From Clostridia bacterium (GTDB lineage: Bacteria; UBA6262; WVXT01), in the NCBI GenBank assembly GCA_009619095.1, contig WJOT01000027.1, forward strand, positions 6,812 to 70,811: a DNA stretch of 64,000 bases, read 5' to 3'. This document shows, piece after piece, positions 37,208-42,434 of this stretch. A program made the translations under genes and the position numbers. The stretch's first letter is position 1. Every line of letters starts with the position of its first letter. The notes under the pieces were generated by a model. That model was not told the origin of the DNA, did no database searches, and saw only the letters and a program-made list of their open reading frames with translations.

Positions 37208-37255
37208 AAGCCGACGGACAGAGTCGAACTGTCGACCTACGGGTTTACCAAACCG
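37208..37255 (-). repeat. tRNA-Thr 3'-part copy no. 1 (att-like remnant, most diverged)
   Basis: aagccgacggacagagtcgaactgtcgacctacgg is identical to the tRNA-Thr 3' end. The next 13 nt match with 1 indel and 1 substitution in the anticodon (GGU-like instead of CGU). No D-arm or 5' acceptor. Confidence 0.8.
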
Positions 37256-37347
37256 AAAAGTCAGGGGGACCTTATACGTTTTCAGCTCCTAAAGCCCTGC
37301 AGATTGGCTGTCGTCTCGGAACAAGTTCAATTCGTAAACGCTTAACA

Positions 37348-37593
37348 TCAGAATATATAGACATAATTGGGGTTCTCTCCACCACCGACGTCACCCTTAC
37401 AACCTTTCTCAATGAAGTAAGATTCAATTCGTCTTGCTACTTCTTCGGTAGTAGCGTACCAATGATGCCAATATTTGGGATTCCCGTGCTCTGTCCTCCG
37501 TCTATCAGGGTCATCTGTAATCCCAATCGTCCATGATGAGTATTTCCCCTTAATGTGTGCCTCTATTTCAGCTTTAATCTCCTGCTCAGTCAT
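37348..37593 (-). CDS. Small hypothetical protein with a GIY-YIG-like 'TIGIT..R..EH' motif
   Basis: 81 aa; ..YSSWTIGITDDPDRRRTEHGNP.. resembles the YIG/Arg/His half of GIY-YIG (YhbQ-like) proteins. It ends ..NYVYIF. This is the only gene in the 0.65-kb islet A. Confidence 0.5.
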   Translation of the reverse strand: MTEQEIKAEIEAHIKGKYSSWTIGITDDPDRRRTEHGNPKYWHHWYATTEEVARRIESYFIEKGCKGDVGGGENPNYVYIF

Positions 37594-37901
37594 AATTTCC
37601 TCCTTTCAATTCTATAGATAGCTCTTCATTTACCCTAACATCAACTTTCCCCTCCTGTGTAAATCCATTTTTCTGTCTTGTCGTAACGAGGGTTTCTGCC
37701 TATCTGATTGTAACAATGCTACCGCAAACTCCTCACTTCCTTATTCGTAATCTTGATTTCAATGTATCACCATTACTGGGTGGAGTCAAGTACAAAATCT
37801 TATATACCTGAACTTACACAGAATTGAGTCGAATTGATACTGTTTTTTTGGTGTGTCTCGAAACGATTGGAGGGACTACCTTGTGGAAAAGCCAAAAAAT
37901 A

Positions 37902-37948
37902 AAGCCGACGGACAGAGTCGAACTGTCGACCTACGGTTTACGAAACCG
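37902..37948 (-). repeat. tRNA-Thr 3'-part copy no. 2 (47 nt, exact)
   Basis: aagccgacggacagagtcgaactgtcgacctacggtttacgaaaccg is identical to 42361-42407, then diverges. Confidence 0.9.
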
Positions 37949-38017
37949 CCCAACTTCAAATTATTATATTAATGAAATAAAGGATTGACAAGTGTTTTTT
38001 TGGGTCTTCTCAATATT

Positions 38018-38320
38018 TCAGTCCTTGCTAATTTTTGCTAATTTTTGGGAATTTAAGCTTCTTTTCTGTTGACTTTTTAGACTAATTCTCTGAGGATGAA
38101 TTCTTCTTACTTTCCCACAATCAGGATTTGTTTTCCCAAAAGATAAACCAGCAACTCCATACATCGCCAAATCCAGTTTCATCCTCCTAATCTGTCGTTT
38201 ACTGATACAAGGGAGTTTATTACCACGGGCTTCTTTCAAGATTTCCTTCCTCTTCTCTTTTTCAACTCCCAACCTTCGTAAGAGACTGGATAGCTCTTTA
38301 ACTTTGATTATCTTGGACAT
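38018..38320 (-). CDS. Hypothetical basic protein (100 aa)
   Basis: ORF only; K/R-rich; no motif I recognise. It sits next to att-like copy 2. Confidence 0.4.
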   Translation of the reverse strand: MSKIIKVKELSSLLRRLGVEKEKRKEILKEARGNKLPCISKRQIRRMKLDLAMYGVAGLSFGKTNPDCGKVRRIHPQRISLKSQQKRSLNSQKLAKISKD

Positions 38321-38441
38321 TCTTTTTCATTCCTTTCTTAGCCAATCTTGATTTCGCCCGTCGCCCTTTTAGTGGCTGGGGAGCAAAGCTCCCCAAGACC
38401 CCTCTCTTTTATATTTCTGCCTTGACGAGAAAAGATTGTAC

Positions 38442-38470
38442 TTGACAAGAAATACTGAACCTTGTAAAAT
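38442..38470 (+). promoter_or_regulatory. Sigma70-type promoter for the BTLCP-like gene
   Basis: TTGACA (38442-38447), 17-nt spacer, TAAAAT (38465-38470). GGAGG lies 8 nt upstream of ATG 38507. Confidence 0.6.
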
Positions 38471-38506
38471 TTTTTCCTAGTATAATGAAAAAAGGAGGTA
38501 TTCTTT

Positions 38507-38992
38507 ATGAGAAAAATAACGTCGCTATTCATCGCGTGTACGCTTGCATTATCCCTATTTTCACCAGGAAGAGCTGAAGAACTCACTTATCCAAAGGAAA
38601 TTCCACCTCTTATTTATGACATTTATGATCTGGTCATCAGGGATAATCCGCTTAAGTTTATTCCGGATGATCCAAATGATTATTGGCAAAGTCCAGCCGA
38701 AACTGAAGCTCGTGGTGGAGGAGATTCTGAAGATCTGGCCATCTGGGTCTATAAAAAGCTCTGGGATAAGTATTATCAGGTAAATTTTATGACGTATCGA
38801 ATTCAGGTATGGGGAAGAGATGACTTTCATATGTGGGTACGGTTTAATACCCACGAGGTTCTTGGGGGAACCTTTGACGTTTGGGATATTGATCTGACTA
38901 CGAGAGACAAAATTTTTCCTGGAAGAATCGCTTATGAGCCTACTCCGGAATACAAAGCTAAGCTGAAAGCGGCTCTTGAGAGGGATAAATAG
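38507..38992 (+). CDS. Secreted transglutaminase-like (BTLCP / peptidase C93-like) protein with Ser in place of the catalytic Cys
   Basis: Signal peptide MRKITSLFIACTLALSLFSPGRA. DYWQSPAETEARGGGDSEDLAIWVYKKL matches the BTLCP core DYWxxPxETLxxGxGDCEDYAIxK except for C to S. Downstream His (FHMWV) and Asp (VWDID) are retained. Confidence 0.65.
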   Translation: MRKITSLFIACTLALSLFSPGRAEELTYPKEIPPLIYDIYDLVIRDNPLKFIPDDPNDYWQSPAETEARGGGDSEDLAIWVYKKLWDKYYQVNFMTYRIQVWGRDDFHMWVRFNTHEVLGGTFDVWDIDLTTRDKIFPGRIAYEPTPEYKAKLKAALERDK

Positions 38993-40679: not shown

Positions 40680-41025
40680 ATCTTTCTTCCTTTCTCTTTT
40701 TAATAAAATCAGAAACCGTCCCTAACAATTCTGCGATAAAACCTAATATTGTTCCTGCTATTGCACCTTTTCCGATAATATACCAATTAAATCCACTTCC
40801 CTTAAAAACAAAGAAAATAGCAACTATAAGCCCTATGATGACTCCTAATGTTAAACCGCCCCAAACAGCATTTCGTCTCCGACAAAAAATTATTAATAAA
40901 ACTGCAGTTATAATTCCAAGAATTTTCCAGATAGTTTTCTCGCCCCTTTCCTTACCAAAAACCGCCCCAAAAACCGCCCCTCGCCCTCTCCCGAAAATTC
41001 ACTTTCAGAAAAACCCTTTATTTAT

Positions 41026-41098
41026 AAGCCGACGGACAGAGTCGAACTGTCGACCTACGGTTTACGAAACCGTTGCTCTACCAACTAAACTACGCCAG
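41026..41098 (-). pseudogene. tRNA-Thr-like copy no. 3 (near full length, degenerate 5' acceptor and D-arm)
   Basis: 61 nt (41026-41086) are identical to the tRNA-Thr 3' two-thirds. After that it reads ..ctaaactacgccag versus ..ctgagctacgtcggc. The resulting acceptor stem has mismatches, so it is unlikely to be functional. Confidence 0.7.
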
Positions 41099-41125
41099 TA
41101 ACACTTTATCATTTATATTATAATA

Positions 41126-41806
41126 TTATCTCAAAATATCTAAGATTTCTTTTTCCTTAGCCTTTTCTAATCCTTTGACTATTTTCTTCTGCCATTTTTG
41201 AGGAACTGAATCAAAAACTTCATTGATAATATTTACCTCACCTTTATTAATCAAAGCCTTGAGAATTCTTATAGCAATATTTCTATCTTTTATAGCCTTA
41301 TCCCTTTTGATTCTTCGTTGAAAAACAATTAATTTATGTAAGGAAAAATTGGCGGGATGAGGCAAGGTCAAATAAAAATCTTCAATCTTAATCTTAATGG
41401 TATTCTCAGATAAAAAATTAAGAAATCTTAAGGCAATTGCATTTACACCCAGTTTTGGTAAGGGGTAAGGTTTATCAGTACCTTTGCCTTTCTCTGGAAC
41501 TAAAAATTCAATAAATAGTTTTGGGTGCTCTAACCTGATATAACCTTGTGGACCTTTAAAACCAATAACGAAACCAAGGTCTTTTACTAATTCCGGAATA
41601 TCAACTTTTTTCTGAATTCTCGATGGCACTGGAATCAAAAAGTCAATATCTCGCGTCCTAATAGAAGGGACATATTTTACTTTGGCAAAATATTCCTTAT
41701 AAAATGGAATGCACCAACTACCAATAAGAACAATATTATTTAAAACTCTAACTCTACTTAATCTTCGCAAAATCTCAAGGCATAATTCATATTGCTTCTT
41801 TTCCAC
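41126..41806 (-). CDS. Minimal nucleotidyltransferase-fold protein (GSU2403-like; TA/Abi-type toxin candidate)
   Basis: 226 aa; VLIGSW...(20 aa)...RTRDIDFLIP fits hG[GS]x(n)DxD of the pol-beta NTase superfamily. It overlaps the upstream partner by 20 nt. Confidence 0.6.
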   Translation of the reverse strand: MEKKQYELCLEILRRLSRVRVLNNIVLIGSWCIPFYKEYFAKVKYVPSIRTRDIDFLIPVPSRIQKKVDIPELVKDLGFVIGFKGPQGYIRLEHPKLFIEFLVPEKGKGTDKPYPLPKLGVNAIALRFLNFLSENTIKIKIEDFYLTLPHPANFSLHKLIVFQRRIKRDKAIKDRNIAIRILKALINKGEVNIINEVFDSVPQKWQKKIVKGLEKAKEKEILDILR

Positions 41807-42143
41807 GTAAAGAACTCCTTAAAAACTTAATTTGTTTTTTTACCTGAGATAATAACTTTCTATACTTGGCTCTATATTCTTTTGCCTGTTTGTATTTTTC
41901 TATCTCTTCTTCGGATACTTTACTACCTTTATATATAAATTTTACCTTGCCGCTTTCCCTTAATAAAAGATAATAGTATTCGTGCCCTTTGATTTTTTTC
42001 TTTATGAGACTCCCTTTAGGTAGCTTTGCTAATTCCCTCTCATAGTCCTTTTTCATCTGAAGAGAATTTTCAAGCTCTTCTCTCAATACGCCTTTTATTA
42101 CTCCCATATTATTTCTCCTTACCAAATATGTATTTGTTACCAT
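41787..42143 (-). CDS. Cognate small partner of the NTase (antitoxin / transcriptional regulator candidate)
   Basis: 118 aa; ..LPKGSLIKKKIKGHEYYYLLLRESGKVKFIYKG.. is a pattern seen in partners of AbiE/NTase modules. Its start codon is embedded in operator repeat 1. Confidence 0.5.
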   Translation of the reverse strand: MVTNTYLVRRNNMGVIKGVLREELENSLQMKKDYERELAKLPKGSLIKKKIKGHEYYYLLLRESGKVKFIYKGSKVSEEEIEKYKQAKEYRAKYRKLLSQVKKQIKFLRSSLRGKEAI

Positions 42144-42235
42144 ACAAATTATAAAATATTATATTCTGTATGGTAACTATTGTCAACAAAAAAAATTACC
42201 ATACAACTGTCAAAATGATTATTTATGTATGGTAA
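42137..42235. promoter_or_regulatory. Two palindromic operators: TTACCATACA-N20-TGTATGGTAA, twice
   Basis: TTACCATACA at 42137-42146 and 42196-42205. Its reverse complement TGTATGGTAA is at 42167-42176 and 42226-42235. Both pairs have 20-nt AT-rich spacers. The first half-site covers ATG 42143. Confidence 0.7.
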
Positions 42236-42304
42236 CCCATCGATTTTTAGAAACTATTCATATTTCTTACTTATCATAACTTCGGCCAAAAGATAAGTAG
42301 AAGG

Positions 42305-42359
42305 AAAAAGCCGCCTTACCCACAAAAGTGGAAAACGCGGCCATATATTCCATTATTTT
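42305..42359 (-). terminator. Rho-independent terminator of tRNA-Thr
   Basis: Minus strand GCCGCGUUUUCCACUUUUGUGGGUAAGGCGGC followed by UUUUU, directly after the tRNA 3' end. Confidence 0.65.
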
Positions 42360-42361
42360 AA

Positions 42362-42434
42362 AGCCGACGGACAGAGTCGAACTGTCGACCTACGGTTTAC
42401 GAAACCGTTGCTCTACCAACTGAGCTACGTCGGC
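42362..42434 (-). tRNA. tRNA-Thr (anticodon CGU)
   Basis: Hand-folded cloverleaf: GCCGACG/TA/GCTC-AGTTGGTA-GAGC/A/ACGGT-TTCGTAA-ACCGT/AGGTC/GACAG-TTCGACT-CTGTC/CGTCGGC/T. All stems are Watson-Crick. No encoded CCA. Confidence 0.9.

Follow-up and report, generated by a model that had tools for sequence, protein, structure and literature searches.

The 64,000-nucleotide (nt) stretch of Clostridia bacterium DNA analysed here (contig WJOT01000027.1, positions 6,812 to 70,811; hereafter called the window) carries, downstream of a gene for tRNA-Thr(CGU), three small islets that are separated from one another by displaced copies of the 3' part of that tRNA gene. We conclude that this locus is probably an accretion array of cargo cassettes resembling cis-mobilizable elements (CIMEs), located at a hot spot in the anticodon arm of tRNA-Thr(CGU) and delivered or moved by integrases acting in trans. 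The observations that carry this conclusion are the tRNA repeats, the lack of recombinases in the islets, the empty site in relatives, the turnover of cassettes at the site, the presence of an integrase at the same tRNA in other contigs, and the recurrence and circular permutation of the islet nearest to the tRNA (islet 1, with islets 2 and 3 lying successively further out). From these observations we infer the identity of the responsible integrase, its action in trans or in cis, and activity at the present day.

ARAGORN called three tRNA genes in the window, all on the minus strand, namely tRNA-Thr(CGU) at 42361-42435, a second 'tRNA-Thr(CGU)' at 41027-41099 and tRNA-Phe at 45181-45255. The 35-mer AAGCCGACGGACAGAGTCGAACTGTCGACCTACGG, which is the antisense of the tRNA-Thr 3' end, occurs in four exact copies, all on the plus strand, at 37208, 37902, 41026 and 42361, with spacings of 694, 3124 and 1335 nt between successive copies, and exact matches to it numbered 0 in 100 of 100 shuffled sequences. 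The original prediction, made from the letters alone, had placed copies of the tRNA 3' part at 37208, 37902 and 41026, and the exact 35-mer matches together with ARAGORN confirm this. When counted from the discriminator base the four copies, taken from the intact tRNA outward, are identical to tRNA-Thr over 73, 60, 46 and 34 nt, and one extra shared T past the discriminator gives the three fragments lengths of 61, 47 and 35. In the 64-kb window no further tRNA-Thr fragments were found besides the four copies when up to 3 mismatches were allowed. The copy at 41027 differs from the tRNA only at positions 1, 3, 5, 11 and 13, all five changes being transitions, and its first acceptor pair is non-standard in the Rfam alignment. 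The ACTGGCG of its 5' part recurs at the right end of a cassette in the related locus L035 and its GTTTAG D-stem variant is also present in the left tRNA copy of L042. An origin of this 5' part from the UGU isoacceptor was considered as well, and two of the five changes match the acceptor strand of the tRNA-Thr(UGU) of L030, but we estimate the chance of such a match at about 1 in 10 and make no claim of it. The copy at 37902 begins at tRNA position 28, in the 5' strand of the anticodon stem, and the copy at 37208 begins at position 28 too, where it reads CGGTTTGGTAAACC plus C, that is, a GGT 'anticodon' followed by one additional C. The outermost copy was thus rightly described as having a GGU-like anticodon variant; the variant is kept in L001 and L011, and L008 has CGT instead. 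The lengths of 35 and 47 nt had been ascribed to differing attP extents, and this part of the prediction has to be given up because both fragments begin at the same tRNA position and differ by the GGT/+C variant. The three blocks between the copies (1.26, 3.08 and 0.65 kb) show no relatedness to one another, and the G+C content over 39000-42250 is 0.29-0.35 compared to about 0.40-0.44 in the flanks. Beyond the outermost fragment the host flank is identical to the flank of the empty site described below and is followed by the hflK promoter at 37199-37171.

About 30 related loci, referred to here by L numbers, were obtained by scanning public genomes and metagenomes for a 33-mer of the tRNA and by looking up contigs that encode proteins of the window, and were then aligned to the window. 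A precise empty site is present in three contigs, L005 and L006 of the metagenome-assembled genome CSMAG_1339, and L015. In these the Sm_multidrug_ex gene, an intact tRNA-Thr, a 250-nt spacer starting with TTATTTATATTGACA, and hflK follow in that order, and the junction sequences equal the outermost junctions of the window, where TTATTTATATTGACA also follows the outermost fragment. Other relatives carry some or all of the islets, or other cargo altogether. L011 has the tRNA, a homologue of islet 3, a decayed fragment with the GGT/+C variant and then hflK, with no other islet; L001 has islet 3 together with the leftmost kilobase of islet 2; and L008 (JABUBP01) and L025 have all three islets, L008 being 98-99.9% identical to the window. 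After the same tRNA, L016 has a 1.7-kb cassette with two unknown genes, L018 has a 1.3-kb cassette with a 285-amino-acid (aa) gene, and L007, L013 and L009 have yet other contents; at least seven different small integrase-less cassettes occupy the tRNA-Thr(CGU) site among the related loci. Since the blocks end precisely in tRNA repeats and are present in some relatives and absent from others, they are insertions at a naturally polymorphic site. The empty site, the presence and absence of cassettes and an integrase at the same tRNA (see below) support the predicted serial site-specific integration into the tRNA 3' end, and the content differs among L011, L001, L016, L018, L007 and L008/L025, so that the fragments are not an invariant feature of the genomes.

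The related loci also bear on the idea that the copies arose by tandem duplication of the tRNA gene or its operon followed by divergence, or that the blocks were inserted by the neighbouring IS110-family recombinase. Two of the copies are indeed full length and called as tRNAs, and an IS110-family gene lies 0.9 kb upstream of the tRNA. But relatives with a precise empty site lack the blocks between the copies, which moreover are unrelated to one another. The copies are cut back from their 5' side to the anticodon arm, as is seen in the products of integrases, the IS110 copy is missing in L005, L015 and L010, and the islets have no resemblance to IS110. We therefore regard such an origin as extremely improbable, and a duplicated tRNA operon is excluded by the related loci. 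The IS110-family gene itself (43351-44757, plus strand; DEDD_Tnp_IS110 and Transposase_20 domains) is located between the Sm_multidrug_ex gene and tRNA-Phe and is the only recombinase near the islets. The L025 contig breaks at its edge, which suggests that this insertion sequence (IS) is present in multiple copies.

The islets were predicted to lack an integrase and an excisionase, and this was borne out: no open reading frame (ORF) of 37208-42360 matched an integrase, recombinase or excisionase in Pfam, NCBIfam, PHROGs or PADLOC, and a profile of 120 tyrosine integrases detected none in all six frames of the 64-kb window. Serine recombinases were not recognised in the islets, and outside the islets the search for them was not exhaustive. 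When tblastn was run with the proteins of the L008 and L012 elements described below, the only matches in the islets were to the tRNA-encoded tail, so that no integrase relic was seen, and no relics of integrase, relaxase or conjugation genes that would indicate descent from an integrative and conjugative element (ICE) or an integrative and mobilizable element (IME) were found there; signs of decay are confined to the cargo. The islet ORFs contained no phage families in PHROGs and gave only marginal matches to defence genes in PADLOC, and three scans of viral_contigs, with the tRNA 3' 33-mer, the tRNA mid-part and the islet 2 right arm, gave nothing that would point to a viral origin. An SSV-type split integrase read from the plus strand ORFs through the tRNA copies was considered and rejected, as these ORFs are short and without homology and the context is bacterial.

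An integrase that uses the same tRNA was found in four related loci, L008, L012, L019 and L020, each with a tyrosine integrase gene (int; Pfam Phage_integrase, E 2e-35) that has an HTH_17 excisionase-like gene in front of it. The elements are located 5' of tRNA-Thr, and the last 14 codons of int (ADVAQLVEQRFRKP, then stop) are positions 1-45 of tRNA-Thr(CGU), so that the attachment (att) region is contained in the int reading frame and takes the place of the tRNA 5' half. Because the host tRNA supplies the same codons after integration, an int gene of this type is not disrupted. The element in L012 is 12.5 kb, and the 6 ORFs scanned in it include an N6 DNA methylase, a PLD nuclease, HTH_17 and int, with no replication gene recognised among them; L012 has no recognisable second tRNA copy and has lost the Sm_multidrug_ex region, which is kept in L010. 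In L008 the element with int and the excisionase-like gene is in tandem with the tRNA and islets 1-3, and a similar accretion is seen in L019 and L036 taken together. On the 5' side there are also L017, in which a duplicate of tRNA positions 1-38 (1001-1039 and 32-104) borders a 0.9-kb integrase-less SnoaL-like cassette, and L009 and L014, in which only the last ~13 int codons remain beside the tRNA (3374-3500 and 309-440, respectively; z 10-14). These contigs show cassette turnover on the 5' side of the tRNA as well. Since the 5'-type repeats (1-38) and the 3'-type repeats (28-73) overlap at positions 28-38, and the break in L035 described below is at 42/43, the crossover is placed in or beside the anticodon arm, the region that is the classical symmetric core for tRNA-targeting integrases (PMC8371274, PMC4383910). 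The integrase of the L008 type is therefore a candidate helper for the islets, and it may have made the junctions in the window.

Islet 1 provides the strongest case for a discrete cassette. It encodes a GSU2403-family nucleotidyltransferase (NTase) and a small upstream partner whose ORFs overlap by 20 nt, and the promoter of this operon (TTGACA-17-TATAAT) matches the consensus at 12 of 12 positions and is embedded in direct and inverted TTACCATAC/GTATGGTAA repeats that are conserved in L035, L036 and L037. These repeats look like an operator for autoregulation. The NTP_transf_8 domain, the overlapping small partner upstream and the palindromic operator at the promoter are the features of a GSU2403-NTase pair of the toxin-antitoxin (TA) type, and so the cargo of islet 1 is best described as TA-like, its toxicity being putative. 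Unlike the other cassettes, islet 1 has a terminator-type tRNA trailer in place of the conserved left-arm motif described below. A 44-mer of this trailer (42316-42359) is exactly repeated at 34791-34834, within a fossil tRNA end further out, and the left arm is homologous to the native tRNA-Thr trailer of L020 (z 21-25) and to the fossil (z 35-41).

The analysis counted 1816 homologues of GSU2403-NTase pairs. Long contigs with homologues 78-87% identical to the NTase pair were examined, and the islet 1 unit was found also in L035, L036, L037 and L042. In L036 the order is tRNA-Thr 3' part, terminator, TA pair, an 84-nt hairpin and the Wzy_C gene, and L019, from the same sample, ends with 127 nt that exactly equal the start of L036, which places the integrase element upstream of the L036 tRNA. 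In L037, L043 and L042 the TA pair lies between two tRNA-Thr-like copies, with neighbouring genes that differ, and in all three the upstream copy is degenerate and a better-preserved working copy is located downstream. In L037 and L043 each of the two copies is recognised by ARAGORN, whereas in L042, where the upstream copy is too decayed, it recognises the downstream one alone; the downstream tRNA of L042 is followed by an L018-type cassette arm. In L035 the NTase pair lies between the stop codon of the PPDK gene and the PPDK terminator, in a locus where no tRNA gene was called in 12.7 kb. The left end of this cassette is a decayed tRNA 3' part followed by a terminator, and the right end is ACTGGCGTAACTCATTGGTAGAGCAACGGTTTCGTAAACCG, the variant 5' part as in the 41027 copy, which corresponds to positions 1-42 of the tRNA mimic and stops at 42. 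This layout is the linear map of a circle that had a full tRNA-Thr mimic with a terminator as its attP. The circle was opened at position 42/43, where the anticodon stem ends on its 3' side, and went into a secondary site, the overlap being 2 nt. None of the copies of the islet 1 unit encodes a recombinase, and hence a small cassette mobilised in trans is the better reading for islet 1. By its arrangement in these contigs islet 1 is a discrete non-autonomous unit that recurs at the tRNA-Thr of other lineages on either side of the working tRNA. A further and more tentative suggestion, which we consider possible but less likely than its opposite, is that the islet 1 family are minimal non-autonomous integrative elements, the counterparts among integrase-dependent elements of miniature inverted-repeat transposable elements (MITEs). 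These would consist of a tRNA-Thr-mimic attP, a terminator and the TA-like pair, would be excised and reinserted by an integrase encoded elsewhere, and together with the other cassettes would make up an integron-type platform at tRNA-Thr served by the integrase that ends in the tRNA 5' half. At another tRNA, a 25-nt exact duplicate of the tRNA-Asp 3' end was seen in L021 (15177-15201 and 15456-15480) beside an MNT/HepT toxin-antitoxin pair and 79-nt repeats, possibly a parallel small TA cassette.

Islet 2 had been taken as a single unit, and the alignments to L007, L016, L018 and L001 show instead that it has a mosaic structure. L007 shares the 71 nt that come first behind the tRNA copy and then has different genes; the sequences of L016 and L018 come back to that of the window at about 40076 and 40034, respectively; and L001 departs from the window sequence at 38996/38997. 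In L001 a terminal segment of about 100 nt (positions 1-105) has GGGGACAGCGACCATTTTT inverted repeats, a motif that is absent from the window, and looks like the end of a MITE or an IS. Loose conservation across unrelated cargo is seen in the 30-70 nt next to the tRNA copy, namely in islet 2, L007, L018, L016, L013/L009, the islet 3 homologue of L011 and L030 (pairwise z 4-8), with a motif of about TATAAATAAAGGGTTTTTCTGAAAGTG; the conserved arm is of the GGGTTTTTCTGAAAGTG type. In the right module the ORF with two transmembrane segments (2-TM) has no canonical start codon and may be a pseudogene or use a rare start. The 161-aa protein of the left module was predicted to be BTLCP-like, and it matches LapG/BTLCP proteases weakly (NCBIfam E 0.004; PDB 4fgo E 0.006), over residues 56-85, where the protein reads GDSEDLA, with a Ser presumably at the place of the catalytic Cys of LapG/BTLCP proteins. 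Homologues of this protein with at least 90% identity occur in at least three unrelated genomic contexts. The left module, that is, the 161-aa gene and the 60 nt before the tRNA fragment, recurs in L030-L034 within the thrU-tyrU-glyT-thrT-tufB cluster. There tRNA-Thr(UGU) has behind it a 2.9-kb integrase-less block (4794-7811 in L030, also in L031-L034) whose far end is a displaced UGU 3' fragment; the block carries two Rce1-like genes besides the 161-aa gene, and its right arm has a consensus outward promoter facing tRNA-Tyr. The T-arm of the displaced fragment differs from that of the rebuilt tRNA (84% identity), which shows directly that the element came with a tRNA 3' half of its own. The corresponding right-arm promoter of islet 2 would re-drive the genes lying downstream of it. 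In L029 the 161-aa gene is present where ARAGORN called no tRNA gene, so its spread is not wholly linked to tRNAs; about 200 nt upstream of the segment that L029 shares there is a short match to a repeat of the window.

Islet 3 is an old and decaying cassette. In L001 the start codon of its 81-aa ORF has changed from ATG to ATA, and the islet is 90.6% identical compared to 98.9% for the flanks. The description of the 81-aa protein as GIY-YIG-like found no support in any library searched. The prediction had left it open whether the islets are decayed remnants or cassettes mobilised in trans, and both occur, islet 3 being in decay and islet 1 a discrete cassette that would be moved in trans. All three of the predicted stacked islets are there, and the array turned out to be deeper than three, as hflKC and a fossil tRNA-Thr end lie further out. 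Neither Rfam in E-value mode nor ARAGORN called a structured RNA at this fossil (34784-34915). In L020 the tRNA-Thr, the terminator and the Wzy_C gene are in direct succession, and L010, L012, L013, L014 and L036 also lack hflKC at this place. Because relatives have the tRNA next to Wzy_C and no hflKC there, hflKC lies within the tRNA-bounded region, between the working tRNA and the ancestral 3' end with its trailer. Most simply, hflKC would have been brought there by an earlier event of this type. Next to the fossil an 84-nt palindromic, MITE-like element (AAGTTCCGGGGACACAATACTTAATTA ... TAATTAAGTATTGTGTCCC) lies at 34916-34999 and is preceded in the window by a triplicated AAAGTTCCGGG; the same element is found directly after tRNA-Thr in L010, L012, L013, L014 and L036 and is absent from L006 and L009. 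The features of the locus are listed in the table.

Table. Features of the tRNA-Thr(CGU) array in the window and the integrase genes in related loci
Feature	Position	Strand	Remarks
Intact tRNA-Thr(CGU), integration target	42361-42435	-	ARAGORN; Rfam tRNA 72.9 bits; 100% identical in 13 related loci
Islet 1, 1.26-kb non-autonomous cassette	41100-42360	-	Promoter with operator repeats, partner gene, GSU2403-family NTase; 99.9% identical in L008
Islet 1 left (tRNA-proximal) arm	42300-42360	-	tRNA trailer, terminator-like hairpin and T run
Islet 1 promoter/operator region	42119-42253	-	Promoter flanked by TTACCATAC repeats
Islet 1 partner gene, 106/118 aa	41787-42143	-	Weak DUF6788 match on record
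Islet 1 GSU2403-family NTase	41126-41806	-	NTP_transf_8, PF12281, E 3e-17
Full-length tRNA-like junction copy	41027-41099	-	ARAGORN; Rfam 55.0 bits; 5' 13 nt are the variant ACTGGCGTAGTTT, remainder identical to the tRNA
Islet 2 left arm (TATAAATAAAGGGTTTTTCTGAAAGTG...)	40955-41026	-	Common to L007; loosely shared with L018, L016, L009/L013, L011 and L030 cassettes
Islet 2 right module	40077-40954	-	2-TM ORF and 177-aa membrane protein; other cargo here in L016 and L018
2-TM ORF	about 40672-40935	-	In-frame ATG, GTG or TTG start lacking; adjoins the 41027 tRNA copy
177-aa membrane protein	40146-40679	-	
Islet 2 middle module, 1.1 kb	38997-40076	.	AT-rich, ORF-poor; common to L018 (40034-39672, 97.8%) and L016 (40008-40076)
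Islet 2 left module	37949-38996	.	161-aa gene, 100-aa gene, right arm
161-aa secreted BTLCP-like protein	38507-38992	+	
100-aa basic protein	38018-38320	-	
Outward promoter in the islet 2 right arm	37991-37963	-	TTGTCA-17-TATAAT, 11/12 matches
Displaced tRNA 3' fragment	37902-37948	-	tRNA positions 28-73 and extra shared T past discriminator; weak Rfam tRNA match, 27.1 bits
Islet 3, 0.65-kb older cassette	37256-37901	-	Alone in L011 (84.7% identity); also in L001 (90.6%)
Islet 3 81-aa ORF	37348-37593	-	No family match
Outermost displaced tRNA 3' fragment	37208-37255	-	Anticodon-arm variant CGGTTTGGTAAACC+C; common to L001 and L011
hflKC	35063-36956		
Fossil tRNA-Thr 3' end with native terminator	34784-34915	-	Decayed T-arm and acceptor end; directly before the Wzy_C gene; outer boundary of older layer
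Tyrosine integrase genes	L008 3671-4837; L012 11573-12733; L019 10001-11161; L020 1736-2896		

A likely course of events is that each incoming DNA circle carried a tRNA-Thr-like attP and that recombination rebuilt the tRNA from the copy on the circle, shifting the former 3' part and all that lay behind it one step downstream. As each insertion would displace the earlier blocks, the youngest block (islet 1) is expected at the tRNA and the oldest furthest away (islet 3, then hflKC and the fossil). The blocks would be recombinase-less cargo units like CIMEs, or leftovers of transient elements in tRNA-linked islands, which elements with an integrase and excisionase targeting the same tRNA most likely brought in and can still move. 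This could happen either by co-excision via the distal tRNA copy (cis-mobilisation), after which the helper departs alone, or by action of the integrase in trans on the two tRNA copies that flank a cassette. On this model islet 1 would consist of the tRNA trailer with its terminator, the auto-regulated TA-like NTase pair and the 5' part of the tRNA mimic, and its TA pair would also stabilise the array. Some of the arms would be adapted to the site, the left arms giving the tRNA a terminator and the right arm of islet 2 giving the downstream genes an outward promoter.

The identities between the window and L008 decrease away from the tRNA and fit this order, the youngest block being at the tRNA and the oldest outermost and eroding. 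They are 99.9% for islet 1, 99.9%, 99.6% and 97.6% for the right, middle and left modules of islet 2, 98.5% for islet 3, 98.2% for hflKC and 90.4% for the spacer next to hflK. The number of variants in 90% protein clusters is 1 for the NTase, 10 for the 161-aa protein, 7 for the 81-aa protein and 31 for HflK. Compared to the window the spacer is 82.9% identical in the lineage that bears islet 3 and 86% in the empty-site lineages. Because islet 3 is in a lineage with a more diverged spacer than that of the empty-site lineages, either a precise loss or an independent gain has happened. As an alternative, the tRNA fragments would be old scars, and the variation of today would come solely from exchange of the whole variable segment between strains by homologous recombination through the conserved flanks (Sm_multidrug_ex with the tRNA, and hflK) together with deletions between direct repeats. 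Islets 1 and 2 being 99.6-99.9% identical, compared to 98.2% for hflKC and 90.4% for the spacer, would agree with this, repeats of 35-73 nt could allow RecA-dependent deletion that restores the empty site, and DNA copied from another chromosome would be expected to have a tRNA trailer of native type, as islet 1 does in its left arm. But shuffling of this kind does not account for the origin of the scars, for the permuted L035 insertion at a non-homologous site with an overlap of only 2 nt, or for the same arm at tRNA-Thr(UGU) next to a displaced fragment of only 84% identity, and as the whole explanation it has in our view a slim chance.

A stronger competitor is decay in place, by which the islets would be the remains of autonomous phages, ICEs or IMEs that, once integrated, lost their integrase and most of their genes by deletion and never moved as small units. 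Islet 3 does diverge faster than its flanks and has lost its ORF start in L001, the 2-TM ORF has no start, 1.1 kb of islet 2 is poor in ORFs, L009 and L014 show int deleted down to its last codons beside this very tRNA, and the three-step route is the textbook origin of CIMEs (PMC5704250). Against this, the islets hold no integrase relic by tblastn, by profile or by comparison of the arms, the 1.26-kb islet 1 unit recurs in at least four genomic settings, one of them circularly permuted at a non-tRNA site, the islet 2 left module with its arm is at a different tRNA-Thr gene, again without an integrase, and the integrase-less cassettes at the site are many and different. We therefore consider it unlikely that decay in place explains the islets, and favour the accretion of cassettes moved by integrases.

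Several observations weigh against this preferred explanation. The only integrase found lies upstream of the tRNA and replaces its 5' half, and likewise the L017 cassette duplicates the 5' part; the islets of the window duplicate the tRNA 3' part, and an integrase element of that geometry was not seen among the related loci. The right arms of the islets have no similarity to the 3' end of int (z < 3), and the left junction and the attP arms of the integrase element were not observed, as L008 and L020 begin inside it. The decay of the cargo in islets 2 and 3 fits passive remnants equally well, and exchange of the whole region by homologous recombination in the conserved flanks could alone explain the 99.9% identity of islets 1 and 2. 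No tRNA fragments are present at the module boundaries inside islet 2, and so a part of the mosaic comes from other processes, for which homologous exchange is one candidate and mobile repeat elements, as in L029, may be another. A circular junction was not demonstrated, because the Logan contigs break at repeats. Two Logan contigs, L026 and L027, were considered as circular forms, as their length is about the repeat period, and were rejected since they end inside repeats, where a circle and a tandem are indistinguishable.

The locus shows, at the level of a population, how a tRNA-linked variable region of an uncultured bacterium builds up, with additions at the tRNA, pushing of older material outward, swapping and slow erosion of small cargo-only units. 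The ordinary-looking hflKC operon is now part of a tRNA-bounded region. At 1.26 kb, islet 1 is a very small and well-delimited substrate for asking whether integrases move recombinase-less cassettes in trans, and the L008-type integrase is a concrete candidate for the helper.

The general mechanism is textbook knowledge: a tRNA gene is split by an integrase and made whole again by the incoming element, whose far end is recognised by a piece of the tRNA gene that has been displaced (PMC4383910). The formation of stacks by repeated integration is called accretion, and derivatives without a recombinase in which the two att sites persist are called CIMEs (PMC5704250); both were first described for ICESt1/ICESt3 of Streptococcus thermophilus and the tRNA-Lys islands of S. 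agalactiae (PMC5704250). Like CIMEs, the islets are bounded by repeats of the attL/attR type, have no integration or transfer genes and lie in tandem at the 3' side of the target gene, and an element with a putatively functional integrase is in tandem with them in the sister strain L008. They differ from CIMEs in being far smaller (0.65-3 kb) and having no visible conjugation context, in the att region of islet 1, which is a full-length tRNA mimic with its own terminator, and in the presence of cassettes on both sides of the tRNA.

The islands collected by Islander have an att centred on the anticodon arm, and 3760 of them are marked by a 3' fragment compared to 159, a minority of 4%, marked by a 5' fragment (PMC4383910). 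The array agrees with them in its intact tRNA gene, in its displaced fragments in direct orientation, which keep positions 28-73 or more, and in its absence from relatives with the precise empty site. Islander admits an island, and likewise every member of a tandem, only with an integrase gene, and stacks of three or more amount to 4 cases among 3919 islands (PMC4383910; Williams 2002 cited there). As none of the islets contains an integrase, the array of the window would be filtered out, and island finders with the same demand would overlook the whole of it.

For the tycheposons of Prochlorococcus it was described that successive integrations at one tRNA push older material inward, with partial tRNAs separating the blocks. 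Most of the material in those islands is no active element, and it was proposed that flanking cargo is brought in by transient integrase elements and stays after they have gone, active elements being rare and strain-specific (bioRxiv 10.1101/2020.12.28.424599). This model of island building fits the pair of L008 and the window well, and both tyrosine-recombinase elements at the island tRNA (L008, L012, L019, L020) and partial tRNAs between the blocks are found here. Unlike tycheposons, the host is an uncultured bacterium of sediment or the subsurface, int ends inside the tRNA 5' half, and the islet-type cargo units keep clean borders of tRNA copies and recur as units.

Integron cassettes, among them the TA cassettes of chromosomal integrons, are likewise small, recombinase-less units, promoter-poor or with a single operon, of which the youngest is at the insertion point, and a TA pair could stabilise them, but the recombination sites of the islets are direct repeats derived from a tRNA. 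An inverted-repeat scan found no attC-like sites at the islet borders, and the window has no IntI-type recombinase and no attI/Pc platform. For the candidate helper, as distinct from the islets, the closest comparison is with the pTN3-like integrases of archaea, whose attB is the 5' half of a tRNA gene, and with the 'suicidal' SSV-type integrases, which have attP inside int and were described as exclusive to archaea (PMC8371274). The likeness lies in the att within the int frame and in the use of the tRNA 5' half; unlike in the suicidal type, the overlap in the L008 type is limited to the final 14 codons, and the host is apparently a bacterium. Among all these systems the locus is unusual in its small cassettes with clean borders, in the recurrent 1.26-kb unit that carries only a TA pair with a full tRNA mimic, in having cassettes on both sides of the tRNA, and in an int gene that ends in the tRNA 5' half.

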